The notes beneath the pieces are model-generated. The model was not told where the DNA came from. It saw only the letters and a list, made by a program, of their open reading frames with translations, and did no database searches. A stretch of 64,000 nucleotides of DNA, taken from assembly GCA_963748815.1 (NCBI GenBank), contig CAVVKJ010000019.1:25921-89920 (forward strand), in the 5' to 3' direction. Source of the stretch: an uncultured Gemmatimonadales bacterium. GTDB taxonomy: Bacteria; Gemmatimonadota; Gemmatimonadetes; Gemmatimonadales; GWC2-71-9. The translations under genes were made by a program, and so were the position numbers. Below are positions 3,256 to 34,313 of the stretch, piece after piece (position 1 is the stretch's first letter; every line of letters begins with the position of its first letter).

Positions 3256-4554
3256 ATGTCCGGTCGAACCACATCCCTCCTGCTCACCCTGGCACTTGCC
3301 GGGGCCCCGATTCTGGTCGCGCAGGGGCTCCCCTCCGGTCAGGCGTCGCGGCTCGGGTTCGATCCGGCACGTCTCGCCCGGATCGACACCCTCTTCCAGT
3401 CTTATGTGGACGCCGGTCGAACACCGGGGGTCGTCGCCATCATCGCGCGGCGGGGACAGGTCGTGTGGAGCGGCGCCTTCGGGATGGCCAATCGCGAGGC
3501 CGGGCGGCCGATGACGCCGGACGCGCTCTTCCGGATCGCCTCCCAAACCAAGGCCGTGACGAGTGTCGCGGCGATGATTCTGATCGAGGAGGGACGGCTT
3601 CGGCTGAGCGAGCCGGTGTCCAAGTACATCCCGGGCTTTGTGGGTGCCCGCGTGGCCGTGGCCACCGATACCGGTCGCGCGTTGGTCGCCATCCACCGTG
3701 CGATCACCATCCGCCAGCTCCTGACCCAGACCGCCGGCCTCTCCTATGGCACCGACTCGCTCCTTCGCGACGACTATCGCGCCGCCGGACTCGGTCCCGC
3801 CGCTGGCTACGGCTGGTACCTGGCCGACAAGCCGGAGCCGATCTGCGCCACGATGGACCGACTGAGCACCCTGCCCCTGGCAGCCCAGCCGGGCGAGGTG
3901 TGGATCTATGGCTATGCCACCGACGTCCTGGGATGCGTCGTGGAGCGGGCCGCGGGAATGCCACTCGATCAGTTCTTCCGGAAACGGATCCTCGCGCCGC
4001 TCGAGATGCGCGATACCTGGTTCTTCCCGCCGGCCTCCGTCCGTGATCGGATGACCACCGTCTACTCCGTCACCCCCGAGGGCACACTGGTGCGCGCGCC
4101 GGACGGGGCGATGGGTCAGGGCGACTACATCGACGGGCCCCGGCAGGATTTTTCCGGTGGCGCCGGGCTGGTGTCCACGGCGGGGGACTACGCGCGGTTT
4201 CTGCAGATGCTGCTCAACGGCGGCCAACTCGACGGGGCGCGCATTCTCTCCCCTGCCACGGTGTCCCTGATGAGCGTCGATCAAGTGGATTCGCTGTACC
4301 CGGTCCGCGGCAGTGGCTTCGGACTCGGCTTCCAGGTCCTCGAGGACCCCGGCCTGGCGGGCGAGTACGGCTCGGTAGGCCGTTTCGGATGGGGAGGAGC
4401 CTACGCGACCAACTATTGGGTGGACCCCGCCGAGGAACTGGTGGTGGTGTTGATGCAGCAACTTCTGCCGGCGCGCGGATTGGACCTGACGGATAAGTTT
4501 CGGACGATGGTCTACGCCGCGCTCATTTCGTCCCCACGCAGCCAAGGACAGTGA
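3256..4554 (+). CDS. serine hydrolase, beta-lactamase/PBP4*-like family (secreted)
   Basis: ATG at 3256. Signal peptide '[17 protein letters not shown]'. Active-site 'ASQTK' (SxxK). Length and '[14 protein letters not shown]' C-terminal block are typical of the class C beta-lactamase fold. Confidence 0.85.
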
Positions 4555-24614: not shown

Positions 24615-24697
24615 GAGGTGAGGACTGAGGACTGAGGGCTGAGATCACGATCGCGATCCAGCCTGGACTTCGCACCCCTGGACAGGAGGAGGCCGAA

Positions 24698-25186
24698 ATG
24701 TCGCGTCGCTCCGTCCCTCGATTCGCGGTGGTGGGGCTGTTTGCCGTGTTCGTTGCTGCCAGACAGTCTGCTGCGCAGGAAGGAGCGAGGTCCGCCCAGG
24801 CGGATTCGACCCATCGCGCCGCCGTGCTCGAGATGCTCCAGGTCATGAAAATTGGGGACGGGATCATGGAGATGATCGAGCTGTCCATGGCGGATACAAC
24901 GGCCGGCGGGGGCATGGTCGAACCCCTTCGTTCGGCGTTTCTTGCGAAAGCCAGAGCGCGTCTGCCTGAACTGTTGCAATCCCTCGTGCCGGGATTCGCC
25001 TCCAGGTTGACGCCGGACGACGTGCGGGAGATCACCGCGTTCTTCCGGTCGCCGAGTGGGGAACACTTGACCGCTGCTCGATCGACGGCCGACCCCCAGA
25101 TGGAGCAGGCGGTGGAACGCTGGGCGCTGAAGGTGGTCGGTGAGGTGATGATGGAGATGGGTGACGCACCCATCCCGGAGAAGTAA
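24698..25186 (+). CDS. secreted hypothetical protein (DUF2059-like helical)
   Basis: Signal peptide 'FAVVGLFAVFVAARQSAAQ'. Helical Met/Glu-rich body. The family assignment is from memory only. Confidence 0.55.
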   Translation: MSRRSVPRFAVVGLFAVFVAARQSAAQEGARSAQADSTHRAAVLEMLQVMKIGDGIMEMIELSMADTTAGGGMVEPLRSAFLAKARARLPELLQSLVPGFASRLTPDDVREITAFFRSPSGEHLTAARSTADPQMEQAVERWALKVVGEVMMEMGDAPIPEK

Positions 25187-25214
25187 CGTCGCCGCACGAG
25201 GGTCCCACCGAAGT

Positions 25215-25235
25215 GGCCCGGAGTTGCTCCGGGCC
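25215..25235. terminator. GC hairpin between convergent genes
   Basis: GGCCCGGAG-ttg-CTCCGGGCC, located between the stop at 25186 (+) and the predicted lipoprotein end at about 25253 (-). No T-run. Confidence 0.4.
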
Positions 25236-25252
25236 GCTCACGGCGGGCGCCG

Positions 25253-26352
25253 CTACTGCCGGACCGCCTTCCCCCGCACATCCCGCCGGTGCCGACGTTC
25301 GGTCCCTCCTGGAAGACGTAGTTCGACACCTGGGAAATCAGGTTCCCGTTGGCCGAGAGCTCCCAGGTGAAGTCTTCGCGGTAGGTGCTGCCCGGGGGGC
25401 CGGCAATGAAGTAGCCGCGCGCCTTGTGGGGGCTCCCCGCGATCACCGTCGCCGTGTAGTTGGCGATGTCGCCGGATCCCGGCGGATCCTCGTCTGCGAT
25501 CGAGATGGTGCTGCCGCTCACTGTCAGCGTGTGCTTCGCCTGGCCGTACTCCACCGGGAGGCAGGCCCAGTTCTGCACGAAGACGCCGACCCAGTCGCCC
25601 GCCTTGCCGGTCCCTGCGCAGGGAAAGGTGATCTCGCTGTTCGGCAGGTCGGTCGCGGTCCCGCCGTTGTCGGTATAGGTGGCGCCGGTGACGGTGACCG
25701 TCGCGCTGTTGGACCGGAATTGCCAGACGGATTCGAGCGTGCCCTGGGTGCCCTGGATCTCGAAGAGCGCGTCGCCGTGGAGGCTGTACCCGCAGATGTT
25801 GGCCACGGCGTTCGCCGTGCCGTCGGCGGGCTTGAGGAGCAGCGGGCTCCCGAGCGGGACGGTCAGCGTCGTCATGTTGCCCGTCACCCCTTCGACGAAG
25901 GTGCCGGACCCGGTGGCCTCCCGTCCCACCGCGGTTCGGACAAAGTCCATTTCTCCCGCGAAGTTGCCGAGCCCGCCGGCGGTGGTGAGCGTCATGTCGA
26001 CGTGCCCCGCAAAGCCGGGCGCCGCATCGGCGGGGTCACCATTGAAGGCGGCGGTGCCCGCCACGGTGGTTTCGGTGGAGCCGTTGCCGTCGCCGTCGAG
26101 CGGGGCCGAGAAGGTGTAGGTGTTCGGCGCCCCGGTGGGGGTAAACACGAAGCCACCGGACCCGGCTGATCCGGGATTGAGCATGAAGGGGATCACGGCC
26201 TCGAAATTCGCCATCCGGGTGACGAGCAGCGTCGCCCCGGTCTTCGCGTACGCGGCCAGTGCCGCGGACGGCGTGGTGACCGGGTTCGGTTCGGAGTCGG
26301 AGCTGCACGACACGAAGGACAGGACCAGCAGGCTGGCGAGCAGACGGCGCAC
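25253..26352 (-). CDS. lipoprotein, beta-rich; natural 3' end probably at TAG 25253-25255 after a 1-nt slip
   Basis: Lipobox 'LVLSFVSCS'. Thr/Gly-rich beta pattern to '...YVFQEGPNVGTGGMCGG'. The called 610-aa ORF then runs antisense through gene 24698-25186. A 1-nt change in the C5/G5 run at about 25,274 gives '..KAVRQ*' just before the hairpin. Confidence 0.6.
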
Positions 26353-26581
26353 GAGGCCTCCTCAGGGGGGGACACCGGCAGACGGCGGGCGACGAAGGGC
26401 GATACCTTACAGGCCGGGACAGGGGGAGTCAATAGGAGATCCCGGACCCGAGCGCCTGTACCCACGACCGGATGTGCGGGCGGCTCGATGCCTATCCAAT
26501 CCTGCGCCATGGTGCAGATTACGGGAACGTAGAATGAGGGAGTCACCCTGATTCAGCTCTAACCAACCCGAGGTCGTCGCC

Positions 26582-27687
26582 ATGGGTCCGCTGCTGAAGG
26601 AAATCCGCCACAACAAGCTGCTCTGGCTGCTGGTGTTCGTGCCGGTGCTGTTCGGCGCCACGCGAGTGCAGGCCCGAGGCGCACACCATGTTGTTCGTGC
26701 TCTCGGTGCTGGCCATCGTGCCGCTGGCGGCGCTCCTGAGCCACGCCACCGAGTCGGTCGCCGCCAAGACCGGCGACGCAGTCGGCGGCTTGCTGAATGC
26801 CACGCTCGGCAACCTCACCGAACTGGTCATCGCGCTGGCCGCGCTCCGCGCCGGCCAGTACGCCCTCGTCAAGGCGTCGATCGCCGGGGCCATCGTCACC
26901 AACACCCTCTTCATGCTGGGCGGCTCGTTCCTGCTCGGCGGGCTCAAGCACCACGTGCAGGAGTACAACCGCGCCGGCGCGCGCCTGCAGGCCGGCCTCC
27001 TCTTCCTGGCCACGGTCGCGCTGTTCGTCCCCTCGGCGGTCGCCGATGTCGACTCCCCGGCGGGGCGGCCTTCAGCCGGCAACTCAGCCTCGGGCTGGCG
27101 GTGCTGCTCATCGTGACCTACGGCCTCGGGCTGGTCTTCTCGCTCAAGACCCACCGCAAGTTCTTCGGCGAGCGCAAAGAAGGAGGGGGAGGAGGAGGCG
27201 CACGAGGAGACGCTGGCCGATCGGGGTGGCGCTGGCCACGCTGGCCGGCGTCACGGTGCTGGTGGCGCTGGTGAGCGAGGTCTTCGTCGAGTCGGTCCAG
27301 GAGGCGGCGGTGACGTTCGGCATGACCCCGGCCTTCGTCGGGTTCATCATCGTGGCGCTGGTCGGCGGCGCCGCGGAGATGGCGTCGGCCTTTTCCGCGG
27401 CGCGCAAGGACCGCCTGGACCTGAGCGTCGGCATTGCGATGGGGAGCGCGGCGCAGATCGCGCTGTTCGTGGCCCCGGTGCTCGTCCTGCTCAGCTACGT
27501 GATCGGCCCGACGCCGATGGACCTGCAGTTCTGGCCGGGAGCGGTGGTGATGGTCTTCTTCGCCATGCTGGCCACGACGCTGGTGACGAACAGCGGCCGG
27601 TCGGCGTGGTTCGTCGGCGCCCTGCTGCTGATGGTGTACGCCATCCTGGGGATGACCCTCTACCTCCTGCCACCCCAAGTGATGTGA
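26582..27687 (+). pseudogene. Ca2+/H+ exchanger (CaCA/ChaA-Cax family), about 3 frameshifts
   Basis: Alpha-repeat motifs 'GNLTELVIALAAL' (frame of ORF 26688) and 'GGAAEMASAFSAARKD' (frame of ORF 26797). N-terminus and 'LAVLLIVTYGLGLVFSLKTH' are in the frame of ORF 26582. Confidence 0.8.
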
Positions 27688-27704
27688 TCGATGAGACTCC
27701 CGCC

Positions 27705-28389
27705 ATGACCGACGACACCGCCGCGGCCGCGCCGCGGCGGGCTCAGCGGTCCCGACGTGTCCTCGAACCGATCGAGCGGCTCTCCGAAATCCTCTTCGGA
27801 CTCATCATGGTGCTCACCTTCACCGGCGCGCTCAGTGTGGCGGAGGCGGGGCGCGCGGATGTGCGCGAGATGCTCATCGGGGCGCTGGGGTGCAACCTGG
27901 CCTGGGGCATCATCGACGGGGTGTTCTACCTGATGGGAGCCATGGCCGAGCGGGGCCGCAACCTGCGTGCCCTGCGAGGCGGTGCGAGCGACCGAAGACC
28001 CGGAGGAGGCCGAGCGCCTCATCGTGGACGCGCTGCCGCCGACCATCGCGGCGGTGCTGGAGCCTTCCGAGTTCGTCGACCTGCATCAGCGGCTCGGCGA
28101 ACTCCCCGAGCCGCCCACCGCCCGCGTCTGGGCGGGACGACTGGCGTCGGCGCGCTCGGCGTCTGCCTTCTCGTCTTCGTCTCGACGCTGCCGGTGGTCC
28201 TCCCGTTCACTCTTCATGCACGACATCGCGCCGGCCATGCGCGTCTCCGACGGGATCGCGATCATCTTGCTCGCGCTCACCGGGGCCGCGTTCTCCCGGA
28301 TGACCGGCCGGAATCCCTGGTTCGACGGCGTCATCGCGGTGCTGCTCGGCTCGGCGCTGGTGGCGCTCACCATGGCGCTCGGCGGATGA
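27705..28389 (+). pseudogene. VIT1/CCC1-like membrane protein, several frameshifts
   Basis: ATG 27705. 'RLSEILFGLIMVLTFTGALS', 'GCNLAWGIIDGVFYLMG' then frame changes. The last TMs 'GIAIILLALTGAAF..VIAVLLGSALVALTMALGG*' are in ORF 27967-28389. The family call is tentative. Confidence 0.45.
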
Positions 28390-29043
28390 CGGGCCTGAGG
28401 AGTCTCGCCCTGATCGGGCTCATCTCTTGTCCTGGTGACAAGGGTCGCCAGGGCGCAGTCGCCTGACACCGCCACCGCCTCGGCGTCGGACGCCGACGAG
28501 CGCACCTGGGCATTCGGCGCGGCGGCATACACCTACTTTCTCCAGGATGACGCCGACTACGTCCAACTGGCCGCGACCGCGGACCGCGCGGCGCTGCACC
28601 TCGAGGCGCGCTACAACTACGAGGAGATCGACGCCGCCTCGATGTGGGTCGGCTACAACCTGAGCGCGGAAGGGACGCTGACGCTGGAGTTCACGCCGAT
28701 TCTCGGCGGTGTCTTTGGCAGCATGACCGGGGTCGGACTCGGATACGAAGGGTCGCTGAGCTGGAAGAGCCTGGAGCTGTACAGCGAAGGGGAGTGGATC
28801 TTCGATACCGAGGACTCTTCGAACAATTTCTTCTACAACTGGTCGCAGCTGATCTATTCGCCGGCCGACTGGGTCAACTTCGGGCTGGTCACCCAGCGGA
28901 CCAGGCTGGTGGACACCGACCGCGAGATCAACCGCGGTCCCTTCCTGGGTTTCAGCTACCGGTCCCTCAGCCTGACTGCCTTCGCGGTCAACGTGGGGGC
29001 AGACGACGCGTACCTCATTCTCGGGCTGGAGGTTGGGTTCTAG
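28386..29043 (+). CDS. outer-membrane beta-barrel protein, one frameshift in the signal peptide
   Basis: ATG 28386 (ATGA overlap). 'MTGLRSLALIGL' then, after a +1 shift, 'SLVLVTRVARAQS'. Alternating Tyr/aromatic strands. C-terminal '...LGLEVGF' ends in Phe. Confidence 0.6.
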
Positions 29044-29352
29044 GCCGGAAGAGAGGACGAGGGAAGCGCGGAAGGGTGTCGGAAGCTCGGAAACAACGAA
29101 AAATGCTCAAAAGCGTCAATTTCTTGAAGGATATTCTGTGTTTTCTTCGATCTTCAATCAAATATCTGGGTTTTGCCGCATTTTCTGCGGCTTTCCGGGC
29201 TATCGGCGTGAAGGGATCACCGCCTTGGACCGGGGACGCGGGAGGCGCGGAAGGCTGTCGGAAGCTCGGAAAGGTGGAATATAGACGAATTATCGCAATA
29301 TTGGGTCAATAATCGATTGAAACAGGTCCATTTGTACCATTCTACTGTTGTT
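29044..29352. repeat. AT-rich intergenic module bracketed by a 27-nt direct repeat
   Basis: GCGCGGAAGGGTGTCGGAAGCTCGGAAA (29067-29093) recurs as GCGCGGAAGGCTGTCGGAAGCTCGGAAA (29244-29271). The interior is far below the local G+C. Words 'TTTCTGCG', 'TTTTGCC' are shared with the modules at 29780-29878, 38830-38960 and 63333-63556. Confidence 0.7.
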
Positions 29353-29380
29353 TTCGCGCCTTCGCGTCTTCGCGTGAGCC
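29353..29380 (+). repeat. family A repeat (CTTCGCGY)n-TGAGCC
   Basis: TTCGCGCCTTCGCGTCTTCGCGTGAGCC. Confidence 0.9.
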
Positions 29381-29407
29381 CCGTCCGAACCCCGCCCGGG
29401 AGGCCCC

Positions 29408-29759
29408 ATGTGGCTGATCACCACCACCGGTTTCTACAGCGTCGTCCAGAAACCGTGGGATCAGGCCGCCGACACCCTCACGGTTCGCGCCCGCGCCAAG
29501 GCTGACCTCGACGCACTCCGCGAGGCCGGGCTCCCGGAGCTGGGGGAGATCATGGAGGATCCCGGGCGCCGACTACCGGTTCCGGGCCCAGGCGCCGAGG
29601 GCGGCAGTGACCCGTGCGGTGCGAGGCGCAGGTCGAGGCGATCGACTACGACAACTTCAAGTCGGCGGTGGCCAGGCGGCAGGGATCGGCGCGCGCCCAC
29701 CTGTATCATGGCGTGTGGGATGCGCTGTATCGGATTCAGTCCGGGACTGAAGGGGCCTA
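29408..29759 (+). pseudogene. conserved hypothetical protein, at least 2 frameshifts
   Basis: 'MWLITTTGFYSVVQKPWDQAADTLTVRARAKADLDALRE..' (frame 1), 'DYRFRAQAPRAAVTRAV' (frame 2), 'IDYDNFKSAVARRQGSARAHLYHGVWDALYRIQSGTEGA*' (frame 3). Confidence 0.5.
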
Positions 29760-29878
29760 GGCTTCCCGCGCCCATTGGGCTCCTCGCCAGACAAAAACAC
29801 TCAAGAACGAGCAGTTTTTCTCCAGAACTCCTCAGTTTCTTCCTGTTTTCTGCGAATTCCAGCACAATACGGTGTCTT

Positions 29879-29906
29879 TTCGCGCCTTCGCGCCTTCGCG
29901 TGAGCC
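29879..29906 (+). repeat. family A repeat preceded by an AT-rich module (29780-29878)
   Basis: TTCGCGCCTTCGCGCCTTCGCGTGAGCC. Upstream 'GTTTTCTGCGAATTCC' matches 'GTTTCTGTTGAATTCC' at 63543. Confidence 0.9.
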
Positions 29907-29963
29907 CTTGGGGAGTATCGAAGTGGCTTGCGCCGTTGCTGGTATTATCAGATATTATTCCGT

Positions 29964-30368
29964 ATGCCAAAGCGACCTCCCATTGCCCGGATCTCCATCA
30001 CCATCCCCGCTGACACCCTGCGGCTGGCGGATGAGCTTGCCGCTCGGCTCGATCGGCCGCGCAGCTGGGTGATGGGGGAGGCGGTGCGGCGGTGGGACAC
30101 GAGTTCCCCCGCGACCGGTGCCACAAGCACCGTGCGCGAGGCCGCGGCCCTTCACTACACTGCGCATCGGCCCGGGCTGGGGGAGAGTCGTCTGGCTCAA
30201 CTCCAATCCGACATGGAGTTGAGCGTGGATGAGCGGGTCCTGGCGGCAGAGGAAGGCGCAAAGCTCGATCGCGTGATCCATCCGTCGAGTCCCGGCTCAC
30301 AACTCAGATTCTTCGATCGATACGAGGACTATCTCGCGTGGAAGAAGTATCAAGGGATCGCCCGATGA
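29964..30368 (+). CDS. ribbon-helix-helix (CopG/Arc-like) protein with a C-terminal extension
   Basis: ATG 29964. 'RISITIPADTLRLADELAARLDRPRSWVMGEAVRRW' fits the beta-strand/helix/helix pattern. Confidence 0.65.
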   Translation: MPKRPPIARISITIPADTLRLADELAARLDRPRSWVMGEAVRRWDTSSPATGATSTVREAAALHYTAHRPGLGESRLAQLQSDMELSVDERVLAAEEGAKLDRVIHPSSPGSQLRFFDRYEDYLAWKKYQGIAR

Positions 30369-30832
30369 CCACGTACCAGACCCAGCTCGCGCAGGTCTGC
30401 GCGCTCCTGAATGAGTCCGGAGCGCAGTATGTCCTGGTAGGCGCCCGCGCCCTTCAGCTCTATGGCAGCAGCCGCGCCACGCGTGATATCGACATCCTCA
30501 TTGAGCCCACCATCGACAACGCCAGACGGGTGCTCTCGGCGCTCTCACAGATCGGATTCGGCGTGGCCAGCGATTGGCTTGCAGAGGAGGTCGTCGCCAA
30601 GCAGGTCACCATCATTGGTGACACGCCAAGGGTGGATATCCTGACGGTGGCGTGGAGCGTTCGCTATCGCGATGCCCGACCCGCGGCGACGATCTTCACC
30701 CTGGAATCGGTGGAGATCCCGACGATCTCGATCGAGCACCTCATTGCCTCCAAACGCACCGGCCGCCTGCAGGACGCGGCCGACATCGAAGTCCTCGAGG
30801 AGATTCAGCGACTTCGCGGCGAGGGCATATGA
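30365..30832 (+). CDS. minimal nucleotidyltransferase-fold protein (DUF6036/AbiEii-N-like)
   Basis: ATGA overlap with the RHH gene. 'YVLVGARALQLYGSSRATRDIDILIEP' equals the G-x-A..G..R.T.DxD NTase signature. Confidence 0.6.
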   Translation: MTTYQTQLAQVCALLNESGAQYVLVGARALQLYGSSRATRDIDILIEPTIDNARRVLSALSQIGFGVASDWLAEEVVAKQVTIIGDTPRVDILTVAWSVRYRDARPAATIFTLESVEIPTISIEHLIASKRTGRLQDAADIEVLEEIQRLRGEGI

Positions 30833-31335
30833 CCGTCATCATCCGCGCCCTCCTCGCCGACATCACTACCCTCGACGTGGACGCCATCGTCAACGCCGCC
30901 AACGACCAGTTGGCCCCCGGCGGCGGCGTCTGCGGTGCGATCCATCGCGCCGCCGGCCCCGAGCTCGCCGAGGCATGCGCCCCTCTCCGCCCCTGCCCTG
31001 CCGGCGAAGCGCGCGTCACCCCCGGCTTCAACCTCCCCGCCCGTCTCGTGATCCACGCCGTCGGTCCCCGCTGGCTCGGCGGCGACCAGGGAGAGCCGGA
31101 GCAGCTGGCCGGCGCCTATCGCTCGGCGTTCCGCCTGGCGCAGGAGAGCATGGTCAAGACCCTCGCGTTCCCCGCCATCAGCACCGGCATCTTCGGGTAT
31201 CCGCTGCACCCGGCCACGGCCATTGCCGTGCGGGTGACGCGGGAGGTGGCGCCGGCGTCGGGGGTGGAGGAAGTCATCTTCGTCTGCTTCAGCGAGGAAG
31301 TGCTGGGGGCGTATCGGAAGGAAGGAGTGGAATGA
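30829..31335 (+). CDS. macro-domain protein (YmdB-like O-acetyl-ADP-ribose deacetylase/ADP-ribosylhydrolase)
   Basis: ATGA overlap with the NTase gene. 'DITTLDVDAIVNAAN..L.PGGGVCGAIHRAAGPEL', 'VIHAVGP', 'AFPAISTGIFGYP'. Confidence 0.9.
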   Translation: MTVIIRALLADITTLDVDAIVNAANDQLAPGGGVCGAIHRAAGPELAEACAPLRPCPAGEARVTPGFNLPARLVIHAVGPRWLGGDQGEPEQLAGAYRSAFRLAQESMVKTLAFPAISTGIFGYPLHPATAIAVRVTREVAPASGVEEVIFVCFSEEVLGAYRKEGVE

Positions 31336-31391
31336 TCCCTCGCGCGTGATTCCGGTTGTGACCTTTCGCTGATGGGTACCAAGACTATAGG

Positions 31392-31420
31392 GGCTCACGC
31401 GAAGGCGCGAAGACGCGAAG
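31392..31420 (-). repeat. family A repeat, reverse orientation
   Basis: GGCTCACGCGAAGGCGCGAAGACGCGAAG. Confidence 0.9.
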
Positions 31421-31431
31421 GAGACAGCGGT

Positions 31432-31854
31432 ATGAACGCAGAGGAGGTCTCCTCGGCTATTGTGGATACTGCATTTCACCTGCACAGAGGGATAGGACCG
31501 GGGCTCCTGGAGTCGGTCTACGAATCACTCCTGTCGAGTCTGCTGGAACGTCGGGACCTGAAGGTAGAACGACAAGTACTCGTCGAGTTCGATTTCGACG
31601 GGGTTCACTTCTCGGAGGGATTACGGCTGGACTTGTTGGTGGAAGGCTTGGTGGTGGTTGAACTCAAGTCGGTGGAGCGATTGGCGCCGGTCCACCCGAA
31701 ACAACTTCTGACATACCTCCGACTATTGCATCTCCCGCTCGGCCTCCTCATCAACTTCGGCGCACCCACCTTCAAGGAAGGCGTCAAGCGAGTCGTCAAC
31801 CATCACACCAACTTCGCGTCTTCGCGCCTTCGCGTGAACCAACGGTCCGACTAA
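31432..31854 (+). CDS. GxxExxY-family protein (PD-(D/E)XK-like)
   Basis: 'GPGLLESVYE', 'DLLVEGLVVVELKSV', 'QLLTYLRL...GLLINFG'. The last 14 codons ('NFASSRLRVNQRSD') are read from a family A repeat. Confidence 0.85.
   Translation: MNAEEVSSAIVDTAFHLHRGIGPGLLESVYESLLSSLLERRDLKVERQVLVEFDFDGVHFSEGLRLDLLVEGLVVVELKSVERLAPVHPKQLLTYLRLLHLPLGLLINFGAPTFKEGVKRVVNHHTNFASSRLRVNQRSD
31812..31840 (+). repeat. family A repeat, forward
   Basis: CTTCGCGTCTTCGCGCCTTCGCGTGAACC. Confidence 0.9.
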
Positions 31855-32444
31855 AGAACCCCGGCAATCGCGTAGGCGATCTTCTCCGCCCCCTGCGAGG
31901 ACGGTTCGATCTCCAGCACGAAGTCCTCCTCCTCCGTGCACACTCGCCGCAATTCCAGCACCTCCAGCCCCAATTCCTCGCCGACCCACCGGATCCGATC
32001 GTTGATCAGCCCGAGGGGGACGCGGGCAAGCCGGCCCGCCATCGGCGGCTGCAGCGGCACCTCGTAGATGGTGCAGAGCACCGTCCTTTCCGTGCGCTCC
32101 ATGACCGACCGCGCCGCCACCTCGTACTGCAGGTGGAACCCGTCGGCGATGGCCAGCAGTTCCGCCAGGACCTCGGCCGCCGAGGTGGCGGGCCGCTCGA
32201 TGATCTCGATGTAGGGCACCAGGTCGTTCCCGCCGATGCTCAGCACCGCGACATCCGGCCGATAGTCCAGCGCCTCGAGCTGACGCGGCAGGCCGCGCAT
32301 GGTGGCGCCGTCCTGCGCCAGCCGCTTCACCGACCAGGTCGGGGCCAGCAGCGGCTCCAGGTGCGCGGTCGTGTCCGGCTCCGGGTGGGTGTAAGGGGCG
32401 TTGTCGAGGATCGAATCGCCGAGGAGGAGGAGGGTCTGGGTCAT
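31851..32444 (-). CDS. SGNH/GDSL-family hydrolase
   Basis: ATG 32444. 'LLLLGDSILDN' (block I Ser), 'LSIGGNDL' (block III). 197 aa. Confidence 0.8.
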   Translation of the reverse strand: MTQTLLLLGDSILDNAPYTHPEPDTTAHLEPLLAPTWSVKRLAQDGATMRGLPRQLEALDYRPDVAVLSIGGNDLVPYIEIIERPATSAAEVLAELLAIADGFHLQYEVAARSVMERTERTVLCTIYEVPLQPPMAGRLARVPLGLINDRIRWVGEELGLEVLELRRVCTEEEDFVLEIEPSSQGAEKIAYAIAGVL

Positions 32445-32450
32445 TGATAT

Positions 32451-32485
32451 CTCACGCGAAGACGCGAAGGCGCGAAGGCGCGAAG
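32451..32485 (-). repeat. family A repeat, reverse (4 units)
   Basis: CTCACGCGAAGACGCGAAGGCGCGAAGGCGCGAAG. Confidence 0.9.
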
Positions 32486-32579
32486 CTGGGTCGGACAAGT
32501 ATGTCACACCCCTCTGACATCTTGGCCTTTCACGTTAGTTGGTCTGACCGGAGCATTGACCAGGAGGAGAGGGAACCCG

Positions 32580-32945
32580 ATGCCTGACTGGAAACCGAGC
32601 CCGATTGCCGGGAAGTTCTACACCGTAGAGGACCTCATGAACCTGCCGCCGGCAGGATGCGTCAATCCCGCGAAGTCCCGGGAGGTGAGCCGGAACCTGC
32701 CGGTGCGGTTCTGGATGGAGACGGCCGAGCTGGTGGCCATTCTCGAGGCCAACATCGAGCTGATCAGGCTCAACCAGGAGCGGGCCAGCGCAGATGACGC
32801 CCGCCAGGCCGAGGTGCTGATTGCGCAGCGACGGCTCTGGGTCCGCCACCTGCTGGAGGCAGACGAGGAAGAGACCTTCATCGGCATCTTTCCCGCGTCG
32901 TTCGCCGGCGACGAATACGATCAGGAGGAGGCCATCACCGGCTAG
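32580..32945 (+). CDS. hypothetical small protein, paralogue of 39074-39373
   Basis: ATG 32580 after AGGAGGAGAGGGAA. 'FYTVEDLMNLPPAG...ELVAILEANIELIRLNQERASADDARQAEVLIAQRRLW' aligns with 'FHTVEELMNLPQAA...ELFELQAMNIEIHQANQMECAPEDARQNAILTERRQLG'. Confidence 0.55.
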   Translation: MPDWKPSPIAGKFYTVEDLMNLPPAGCVNPAKSREVSRNLPVRFWMETAELVAILEANIELIRLNQERASADDARQAEVLIAQRRLWVRHLLEADEEETFIGIFPASFAGDEYDQEEAITG

Positions 32946-32950
32946 TTCCT

Positions 32951-32995
32951 CTTCGCGACTTCGCGTGAGCCGAATCAGTTCACACGAAGTCGCGA
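32951..32995. repeat. family A repeat, forward, plus a partial reverse unit
   Basis: CTTCGCGACTTCGCGTGAGCC (32951-32971); CACACGAAGTCGCGA (32981-32995). Confidence 0.85.
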
Positions 32996-33002
32996 TCTTT
33001 CA

Positions 33003-33047
33003 CCTCACCCCCTGTCCCCCTCTCCATGATATGGAGAGGGGGAACGC
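33003..33047. repeat. family B palindrome (inverse orientation)
   Basis: CCTCACCCCCTGTCCCCCTCTCCATGATATGGAGAGGGGGAACGCC. Confidence 0.85.
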
Positions 33048-33056
33048 CGAGCGAAG

Positions 33057-34313
33057 CTACGGCATCCGCATCTTCCTGCCGAGGAGGTCTTTCGCTTCCC
33101 GGATGTTGTAGGACTCGAAACGCTCGCGCTTGAGCGAGTACTGGTCGAACCGCTCCCGGTGCCTGTGGGCCAGCTGTTCCAACTCGCGCACCAGGCGCCG
33201 CATTTCGGGGTCATGTCCGGCGTACTCCTTGATCCGACGGGCGGTGGCCAGCAGTACGCTGCGCGCCTTCTCCAGTTCGCCGATCCGGTTCAGCTCGGCC
33301 GCTTCCTCGCGGGCCTGGGCGGCGTAGCGCTGGGCCACGGCGAGGTCCACCGACTGGTCGCGCACCTGGGCGTCGTTGGCGGGGTGGTCGGCGTACTCCC
33401 ACTCGATCCGCTCGGGGCGGACCTGCAGTACACCGTCACGATCGGCCAGGGAGACACTGATACCGGAGCTGGCGCCCATGGCACCGCGGGGGAACGTCAC
33501 GCGGAGTACCGCGTCCACCTGCTGGCGGCTGACGAGGTCGTCGAGCGCGACTTCCACGGTGCGGCCGTTTCGGGTGACGCGGCGACCGTCGAGCGAGTGA
33601 ATGATCAGGCCGGGGTCGGCTTCGACGACGACGCTGGCGTCCCGTGACACGACCTCGAGCGCCTCGCCCAGTTCGCTCATCAGGAAATCGGCAATCTGTT
33701 CCGGACGCTCGAGGTAGTAGAAGTTCCCGCCGCCGGCCCGGGCCATGCCCTCCATGAGCCGCTCGTCGAAATCGCGCCCGATGCCGAAGGTGCTGGTGGC
33801 GACGCCGCGGGCGCGGAGTTCGCCGGCATGCGTTTGGAGCGCACCCACGTCGGTGATGCCGGCGTTCGCCAGGCCGTCACTCAGCAGCAGCGTGCGGGCG
33901 ACGGTGTTCGCGCGCTCGGCGCGAGCCACCTCTTCGCAGCCCGTCAGCCAGCCGCCGGAGAGGTTGGTGGAGCTGCCGGAATCGAGATGGTCGATTGCCG
34001 AGAGGAGGCGGCGCTTGTGGTCGTGATCGAGGAGCGCGCCGCCGGCCAGGAGCTCCACCTCGGTGTCGTAGGCCACCAGGGCCACGTGGTCGCGGGGGCC
34101 GAGAAGTTCGACCGCGCGGCGGGCAGCCAACTTCGCCAGTTCCAGCTTGTCGCCGTCCATCGAGCCCGACTTGTCGATGACGAGTGCGACGTCGAGCGGC
34201 AAACGTTCGCGCTGACGCGGGGCCTCGGGGGCGGTGAAGCGGATGCGGACATAGCGGGTGCTGTGGACGCCGGCGCGGACCAGCCTCCGGTCGGTATGGA
34301 TGTGCAGTGTCAT
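33057..34313 (-). CDS. von Willebrand factor type A (vWA) domain protein with beta-rich and coiled-coil C-terminal regions
   Basis: ATG 34313. MIDAS 'VIDKSGSMDG'; 'SGSSTNLSGG'; 'LLSDGLAN'. Helical tail 'AQREEAAELNRIGELEKARSVL'. Confidence 0.8.
   Translation of the reverse strand: MTLHIHTDRRLVRAGVHSTRYVRIRFTAPEAPRQRERLPLDVALVIDKSGSMDGDKLELAKLAARRAVELLGPRDHVALVAYDTEVELLAGGALLDHDHKRRLLSAIDHLDSGSSTNLSGGWLTGCEEVARAERANTVARTLLLSDGLANAGITDVGALQTHAGELRARGVATSTFGIGRDFDERLMEGMARAGGGNFYYLERPEQIADFLMSELGEALEVVSRDASVVVEADPGLIIHSLDGRRVTRNGRTVEVALDDLVSRQQVDAVLRVTFPRGAMGASSGISVSLADRDGVLQVRPERIEWEYADHPANDAQVRDQSVDLAVAQRYAAQAREEAAELNRIGELEKARSVLLATARRIKEYAGHDPEMRRLVRELEQLAHRHRERFDQYSLKRERFESYNIREAKDLLGRKMRMP

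Follow-up and report, generated by a model that had tools for sequence, protein, structure and literature searches.

When three short genes are chained together by overlapping start and stop codons, do they make up one system of three working parts, or a smaller system that lies against a neighbour? The question is raised by a locus of an uncultured Gemmatimonadales bacterium, within a 64,000-nucleotide stretch of contig CAVVKJ010000019.1 (hereafter the window; G000:C19:25921-89920) that belongs to a 3.16-Mb metagenome-assembled genome (MAG) of 19 contigs and 86% completeness. Here, genes for a ribbon-helix-helix (RHH) protein, a small nucleotidyltransferase (NTase) and a macro-domain protein follow one another on the forward strand, and an earlier note on this DNA had proposed that, should they co-occur elsewhere, they would form a tripartite module, either toxin-antitoxin (TA)-like, with macro domains known as antitoxins from DarG, or devoted to NAD/ADP-ribose signalling. 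In this work, we arrive at a different division of the operon. We consider it likely, with a probability of about 0.7, that the RHH and NTase genes constitute a MenAT/AbiE-like TA pair with an RHH antitoxin, and that the macro gene is its co-transcribed neighbour.

Gene arrangement

The three open reading frames (ORFs) occupy positions 29964-30368 (RHH, 134 aa), 30365-30832 (NTase, 155 aa) and 30829-31335 (macro, 168 aa), with ATGA start/stop overlaps at 30365-30368 and 30829-30832, exactly as the earlier note gave them, and its domain calls agree with the Pfam matches (RHH_1, NTase families and Macro). Overlaps of 4 nt at both junctions are also present in the five other genomic loci with all three genes that read cleanly (L006, L007, L041, L059 and L066); the NTase/macro junction of a metagenomic trio (L116) is likewise ATGA, and the RHH/NTase overlap is ATGA or GTGA in the window and in the six trio loci examined. 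Since the overlaps recur in other trio loci, the arrangement is not a one-off, and the coupled operon proposed at the outset is borne out. In one further trio locus, L081, there are indels around the NTase/macro junction: between positions 4400 and 4500 of this locus (genome G142), the 3' end of the NTase gene and the 5' end of the macro gene each carry one, within about 70 bp, which may reflect errors of long-read assembly or a module that has begun to decay. A search of positions 28500-33500 against Rfam (E<=0.1) gave no match.

The RHH and NTase genes travel together, the macro gene mostly apart

Relatives of the NTase were collected by scanning one genome per species, which yielded 140 loci, and the best 80 of these were taken with 4-kb flanks. 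An RHH homologue lies directly upstream of the NTase gene in 79 of the 80, the exception being a locus that begins at base 2 of its contig. The macro gene, on the other hand, follows the NTase gene in only six (L006, L007, L041, L059, L066 and L081); the other 74 have no macro gene inside 4 kb. Across the 80 loci no third gene recurs, the next gene differing in strand, distance and size. The metagenomic contigs give a similar picture: one NTase, 93% identical to that of the window, belongs to a trio (L116), and NTases with 81% identity stand in a pair without macro gene, ahead of DUF2779 or an unrelated gene. The family itself is large: of 1,683 candidates from the metagenome collection, at least 1,600 match at E<=1e-5, many of them with 70-97% identity.

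Seen from the macro side, the association is equally loose. Macro orthologues are present in 78 of the 151 sampled genomes of the family, and among the best 30 orthologue loci the RHH-NTase pair lies upstream in two only, the window and the L081 locus of the congener G142, so that 28 of the 30 are without it. The expectation that a tripartite RHH-NTase-macro unit would co-occur in other genomes is thus not upheld; what stands from the neighbourhood survey that the earlier note called for is the co-occurrence of RHH and NTase (79/80), and what largely falls is that of the macro gene (6/80).

The distribution of the NTase is patchy, with relatives in 41 of 301 sampled genomes of the phylum (about 14%) and in two of six of its own genus, as is typical of accessory TA genes. 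The relatives of the window at NTase-bearing loci are all from Gemmatimonadota. A contig labelled Actinocrinis sp. (L048, 2019 bp) carries an NTase identical to that of L042, from a Gemmatimonadaceae genome; the two come from the same study, in MAGs of different phyla, and mis-binning of the short contig L048 is the most likely reason. None of the phage records encodes an NTase relative, and the relatives on plasmids are distant (26-34% identity), being annotated as NTases of the DUF6036 family that also come with a small upstream ORF. Two of these, on the plasmids CP155474.1 of Fibrella and CP001771.1 of Spirosoma (loci L126 and L127), are 27-31% identical to the NTase and form the N-terminal domain of 'DUF6036 family' proteins of about 635 aa, each preceded by a 75-aa ORF; that of Fibrella adjoins an annotated AbiEi/AbiEii pair. 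A paralogue in the genome under study (L002; G000:C17:80727-81146) is 39% identical and shows the same weak Pfam profile; the small ORF in front of it is a different one, and its matched frame contains a TAG.

The NTase resembles MenT1

The Pfam matches of the NTase, our candidate toxin, are weak and overlap one another. Aminoglyc_resit (24.2 bits, cut-off 21) and DUF2204 (23.7, cut-off 20.3) exceed their thresholds, and AbiEii (PF08843; 22.2 vs 22.5) and DUF6036 (21.0 vs 23.6) stay below theirs. Among 59 family members compared with these families (E<=0.001 for AbiEii), DUF6036 was matched by 43, DUF2204 by 35, AbiEii by 32 and Aminoglyc_resit by 28; PADLOC also returned weak AbiEii matches for the NTase, and none for the macro protein. 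A profile of the family had its best match in the PDB with MenT1 of Mycobacterium tuberculosis (8AN4/8AN5/8RR5; E 1.4e-4, residues 5-137), and a confident AlphaFold2 (AF2) model (predicted local distance difference test, pLDDT, 91.3; predicted template modelling score, pTM, 0.88) retrieved MenT1 as the top Foldseek match (8an5_B; E 3.8e-6, template modelling score, TM, 0.69), the MenT1 chains of 8an5, 8an4 and 8rr5 covering the range from 3.8e-6 to 6e-5 in E-value and from 0.52 to 0.69 in TM. TM1012, LnuA (4FO1; TM 0.60), ANT(2'')-Ia (TM 0.54-0.59) and JHP933 came after it. With MenT1 as the best PDB match by profile and by fold, and an RHH gene upstream in nearly all loci, the suggestion that this NTase is of the TA kind gains support.

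The key residues are G26, T39, D41, D43, D91, K130, D137 and D140. Over 59 sequences, G26, D43 and K130 do not vary, D41 is conserved to at least 90% and T39 is either invariant or conserved to that degree; T39, D41, D43 and K130 align with T39, D41, D43 and K137 of MenT1. Toxins of the DUF1814 type have been defined by four motifs (PMC7450476). The metal-coordinating pol-beta motifs I and II (hG[GS]...DxD) are present as G26, D41 and D43, aligned with the ...TRDVDI... segment of MenT1, and the lysine of motif III as the invariant K130 in HLIASK, which the profile alignment places on HLIAMK of MenT1. In MenT3 the motif III lysine is K189, and the acidic pair of motif IV is unique to DUF1814. 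An invariant D137-x-x-D140 follows K130 in our family and might be the equivalent of motif IV; this assignment is uncertain, as the hidden Markov model alignment stops at D137 and the spacing is five residues shorter than that to D149/D152 of MenT1. In MenT1, all four of these aligned residues are required for toxicity or phosphorylation: toxicity as well as nucleotide binding depends on D41 and K137, and the antitoxin induces auto-phosphorylation at T39 (PMC10435456, PMC11375011). Given that the NTase falls below the AbiEii cut-off, we file it as related to the MenAT/AbiE toxins, and as probably working alike, and not as a formal member.

The RHH protein and its putative operator

The RHH protein, our candidate antitoxin, matches RHH_1 (PF01402) over residues 9-44 (E 1.2e-6; 28.7 bits vs a cut-off of 20.5), and the best PDB profile matches of this N-terminal domain are RHH antitoxins or regulators, namely EndoAI (4ME7), CopG, MazE6 and Rv0298. 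Its AF2 model (pLDDT 79) consists of a strand-helix-helix unit (about residues 8-46), a disordered linker (about 50-66) and three helices (74-129). The C-terminal region contains the conserved motifs GLG..R.AQL and FDRYEDYL.WK and found no sequence relative in the PDB by profile search; its helices are predicted to neutralise the NTase.

The regions upstream of the RHH gene in different loci share a TTGNC element and GTAWTAY-like repeats immediately ahead of the start codon and are otherwise unrelated. Over 72 loci the density of this 7-mer is 11.3 per kb in the last 75 nt before the gene vs 0.14 per kb in the next 400 nt upstream, an enrichment of about 80-fold, and where there are two or more copies they are spaced by 10 nt in 11 cases and by 20 nt in three. 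The window has three half-sites phased at 10 bp (29942-48, 29952-58 and 29962-68), of which the third overlaps the ATG. They coincide with a predicted promoter made up of TTGCGC (29928-33), a 19-nt spacer and TATTAT (29953-58), so that promoter and operator together would occupy 29928-29968 on the forward strand. A scan of positions 29300-31900 for strict sigma-70 consensus sequences and terminators found nothing, and the promoter proposal therefore rests on cross-locus conservation. We regard the GTAWTAY-like repeats as the putative operator of the RHH protein. Since no Shine-Dalgarno sequence precedes the RHH gene, its mRNA is probably leaderless.

The macro protein is of the MacroD/YmdB type

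The macro protein matches PF01661 with an E-value of 2.3e-41 and scores 199.5 bits, vs a cut-off of 200, with the NCBIfam model for O-acetyl-ADP-ribose deacetylase (NF001664). It aligns with Escherichia coli YmdB (5CB3/1SPV) over residues 5-162 (E 4e-41) with all ADP-ribose-binding loops present, including the motifs NAAN, GGGV.GAIH and AISTG..GYP; all peptide motifs cited in the earlier note were found. We predict that it is a hydrolase of the ADP-ribose/O-acetyl-ADP-ribose type. Two positions differ from YmdB, a Cys (codon 30931-30933) standing for the catalytic Asp35 and a Phe (in GIFGYP) for Tyr126. The Cys occurs in 19 of 34 orthologues of the family, with or without the TA pair, and the macro residues are alike in TA-linked and unlinked orthologues. 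By this comparison, both substitutions are lineage variants that are also found away from the pair. The DarG-like role that had been considered for the macro protein does not fit its class, which is MacroD/YmdB and not DarG. The absence of a DarT-like gene is confirmed in so far as a search with PF14487 gave no match in the 86%-complete genome, a result of little weight, since control genomes gave none either.

The RHH C-domain and the NTase are exchanged as one block

A branch of the NTase tree with 98% support in the Shimodaira-Hasegawa-like approximate likelihood ratio test (SH-aLRT) sets the seven macro-linked sequences, together with L008, apart from the 73 unlinked ones. With all linked NTases on one side of this branch, one event and its subsequent inheritance would suffice to explain the co-occurrence with the macro gene. 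The macro tree contains a tight clade (97/95) of seven TA-linked and three TA-less genes, with L007 as its sister; the branching order inside the clade is not resolved by this tree, and the pair may have been either gained or lost beside the macro gene.

Within these loci the NTase exists in two forms. Allele A is found in the window, L006, L007, L008 and L116. Allele B, found in L041, L059, L066 and L081, is 62-64% identical to the NTase of the window and occupies the same site. The comparison of the window with L081 shows where one replaces the other. Nucleotide identity is 90-100% over 29420-30079, which comprises the promoter, the RHH N-domain and UP, a conserved hypothetical gene upstream of the operon; it drops to 30-77% over 30080-30859 (RHH C-domain and NTase) and returns to 90-98% over 30860-31339 (macro). 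The corresponding protein identities are 87% for the RHH N-domain, 54% for the RHH C-domain, 62% for the NTase and 95% for the macro protein; in L006, which shares allele A with the window, they are 71, 62, 89 and 89%, respectively. These steps in identity indicate that the unit inherited together is the RHH C-domain plus the NTase, and that the macro gene is outside it. That the RHH C-domain and the NTase form an exchangeable specificity cassette, of which two alleles circulate at one chromosomal site, is better supported than the recruitment of the macro protein considered below.

Base composition agrees with this, with a step between the pair and the macro gene. The G+C content is 64.7% for the RHH gene, 63.0% for the NTase gene and 71.0% for the macro gene, that of the genome being 68.6%, and the G+C content at third codon positions is 72.6, 79.5 and 88.2%, respectively.

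One slot in several versions

Close relatives hold different gene sets at this slot: the pair with the macro gene, the macro gene alone (C3, L128 and G016) or the pair alone (L008). Contig C3 (7068 bp), of the same MAG, is a second copy of the region, 90% identical to window positions 24649-29741 and 95% identical to 30835-31331. It is without the segment 29742-30834, that is, the RHH-NTase cassette, and in it the stop codon of UP lies 2 nt before the ATG of the macro gene; it may stem from a related strain binned with this genome or from duplication of the segment, and it serves as an example of an empty site. In L128, from an independent genome with a macro protein 88% identical to that of the window, the order is an outer-membrane-protein-like gene, UP, macro and DUF2779, again with 2 nt between UP and macro, and the junction TGAGCATG is identical in L128 and C3. 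The notion that C3 arose by simple deletion of the cassette was dropped, as the diverged L128 shares the TGAGCATG junction and the macro tree does not resolve the order within the clade. In the congener G016, UP is followed by a reverse-strand gene for a PUA-like protein of 386 aa, the macro gene and a vWA gene; the PUA-like gene (PF24405; positions 158-1318 of the G016 locus L088, reverse strand) takes the slot held by RHH-NTase in the window. Since the macro gene of G016 lies directly before the vWA gene, the GxxExxY, GDSL-hydrolase and 129-aa genes of the window (31372-32945) are insertions as well. The order in L081 is UP-RHH-NTase-macro-DUF2779, and in L008, which has no macro gene, a long ORF comes after UP-RHH-NTase, at the place taken by DUF2779 in the 81%-identical P0015 contigs. 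The trio loci also differ in what lies upstream, which can be UP, AAA+PDDEXK_4 or neither.

UP (29408-29760, forward strand, 116 aa) matches no Pfam family, and none of its 76 relatives bears a name. In the window it is split over three frames, by two frameshifts or assembly indels, and it is intact in C3, L081 and L128. A conserved UP-macro pair, as the 2-nt gap in C3 and L128 might suggest, was considered and rejected, because distant UP homologues precede unrelated genes, such as DinB_2.

The three genes are bracketed by perfect inverted copies of a repeat (family A), CTTCGCGCCTTCGCGTGAGCC, which has 11 matches in the window vs none expected by chance. The left copy is at 29886-29906 on the forward strand, and the right one, at 31392-31412 on the reverse strand, doubles as the left end of the GxxExxY (PDDEXK_3) cassette next to it; further copies are found at 29360-29380, 31820-31840, 32449-32469 and 32951-32971. 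Copies ahead of the RHH promoter are confined to the macro-linked clade (window, L006, L041, L059, L066 and L081). The repeat is a genome-wide context element that lies outside the TA module in most other genomes.

Proposed mechanism and alternative explanations

Taken together, these results suggest the following working model. The RHH protein would bind the phased GTAWTAY repeats over the -10 region and the start codon, and so repress the operon, and its helical C-terminal region would hold the NTase inactive by occlusion. It might, in addition, induce auto-phosphorylation of the NTase at Thr39, as MenA1 does to MenT1. Upon loss of the antitoxin, the NTase would, by homology to MenT1, add nucleotides to the 3' ends of tRNAs, and translation would stop. 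The macro gene would be a resident at the edge of a gene-shuffling hotspot, neither needing the TA pair nor being needed by it; in one clade of soil Gemmatimonadales the TA cassette abuts it with a 4-nt overlap, from which co-transcription and translational coupling would follow.

Several observations weigh against this model. The toxic activity and the target of the NTase are proposed by analogy, at 21-24% identity to MenT1. The NTase scores 22.2 bits with AbiEii, vs 22.5 required, yet passes the cut-offs of Aminoglyc_resit and DUF2204, and it folds almost equally well onto LnuA (TM 0.60) and TM1012. It is also very conserved for a toxin, with a mean column identity of about 75% across the phylum. 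The macro tree, as mentioned above, allows both gain and loss of the pair beside the macro gene. Finally, the 4-nt overlap between NTase and macro survives the allele swap as well as the divergence of L007, whose macro protein is 64% identical and whose flanks are non-syntenic; that it was kept in both cases makes some selection for co-expression possible, and the conservation of the overlaps in the trio loci is the main argument for it.

The last of these points leads to a clade-specific system of three components, in which the macro protein was recruited as a partner of the NTase and would hydrolyse its nucleotide- or ADP-ribose-linked product or provide a second layer of safety. We consider this unlikely. 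It would account for the ATGA/GTGA at the NTase/macro junction of the cleanly read trio loci with either allele, for its persistence in L007 despite 64% macro identity and non-syntenic flanks, and for the maintenance of the trio while the upstream content varies between UP, AAA+PDDEXK_4 and none. In its narrower form, a MacroD-type hydrolase co-opted as a third working part that processes a nucleotide or ADP-ribose adduct made or triggered by the NTase, which seems to us slightly less likely still, it would explain why the 4-nt coupling outlived NTase allele replacement and about 35% divergence of the macro protein. Notwithstanding, 74 of the 80 NTase loci have no macro gene inside 4 kb, close relatives carry macro-only and pair-only versions of the slot, and it is the RHH C-domain that co-varies with the NTase allele and not the macro protein, whose residues are the same with and without the TA pair. 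Every linked case fits one origin, and a 4-nt overlap leaves no room for insertions, so that its persistence may be structural. Besides, we know of no chemistry that joins MenT-type nucleotidylation to MacroD hydrolysis.

The other two alternatives concern the NTase itself. It might act on a small molecule, an antibiotic or metabolite, in the manner of LnuA or ANT(2'')-Ia, with the RHH protein as a transcriptional regulator. Its score with Aminoglyc_resit (24.2 vs 21), the weak NCBIfam matches to Lnu(AN2) and Lnu(A), the Foldseek similarity to LnuA 4FO1 (TM 0.60) and ANT(2'')-Ia (TM 0.54-0.59) and its high conservation would all be in line with such an enzyme. We find it improbable, however, because the matches to resistance enzymes span the N-terminal 75-80 residues, whereas that to MenT1 spans residues 5-137 and includes the C-terminal Lys; those to Lnu(AN2) and Lnu(A) reach 17.2 bits vs 340 and 12.9 vs 300 over residues 3-79, which excludes a true Lnu. 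The conserved helical tail of about 65 aa of the RHH protein, which is swapped together with the NTase, fits a neutralising partner and not a simple repressor, and the distribution is patchy and hotspot-associated. Minimal nucleotidyltransferases (MNTs) of similar size are, on the other hand, antitoxins in HEPN-MNT pairs, from which one could argue that the NTase is an MNT-like antitoxin following the logic of type VII, or that it belongs with a toxin encoded elsewhere, and that the RHH protein is a regulator only. This is the reading to which we give the least credence: no HEPN gene is adjacent in the 80 loci, which have no conserved third gene either; the C-terminal region of the RHH protein is without the Rx4-6H motif, and this partner without a HEPN match in Pfam; and the best structural relatives of the NTase are toxins of the MenT/AbiEii group, not MNTs. 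An antitoxin-like DNA-binding protein encoded ahead of the enzyme, with overlaps of 4 nt, is also the classic layout of type II systems.

Relation to known systems

How MenT and AbiEii toxins work has been understood only recently: they block translation by extending the 3' ends of tRNAs, and they have been studied mainly in M. tuberculosis and in streptococcal phage defence. Against this background, the locus defines an abundant and apparently undescribed branch of MenT/AbiEii-like NTases; in the literature we found no description of an RHH protein paired with such an NTase. A small NTase with an RHH antitoxin and its putative operator would be a compact model for how unrelated antitoxins control one NTase core, and for whether auto-phosphorylation at Thr39 is general, and the natural swap of RHH C-domain and NTase supplies pairs for comparing cognate with non-cognate specificity.

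The systems to which the genes can be compared differ for each part of the operon. The macro protein is like YmdB and human MacroD1-2 in its full-length alignment and loop motifs, and unlike them in having Cys at the position of Asp35 and Phe at that of Tyr126. DarTG also has a macro gene within a TA-like operon; here, in contrast, that gene is the last one, there is no ADP-ribosyltransferase partner, the protein is of the MacroD/YmdB type and the candidate toxin is the NTase, and the case cautions that translational coupling to a macro domain alone is no proof of a DarG-like role. The HEPN-MNT systems of type VII, too, consist of two genes, one of them for a minimal NTase about 150 aa long, but here the NTase is the second gene, its partner is an RHH protein and its fold neighbours are MenT1, TM1012 and LnuA. 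DUF6036 and DUF2204 (PF19502 and PF09970) are the commonest Pfam matches across the family (43/59 and 35/59), and as both are uncharacterised, the label adds no mechanism. The candidate antitoxin resembles those of type II TA systems with RHH proteins (CopG/MetJ/Arc) in its N-terminal RHH, its C-terminal extension and the operator-like repeats to which it is predicted to bind.

The closest known system is MenAT1 (Rv0078B-Rv0078A), in which a small antitoxin gene likewise lies upstream of a gene for an NTase of the pol-beta fold. The NTase described here is shorter (155 aa vs about 190 aa), 21-24% identical and 0.3 bits under the AbiEii cut-off. The antitoxins are a greater difference. AbiEi, MenA3 and MenA4 are winged helix-turn-helix proteins. 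MenA1 is a MazE-related protein of 68 aa without a DNA-binding domain (PMC7450476). The candidate antitoxin of our locus combines an RHH domain with a predicted helical tail.

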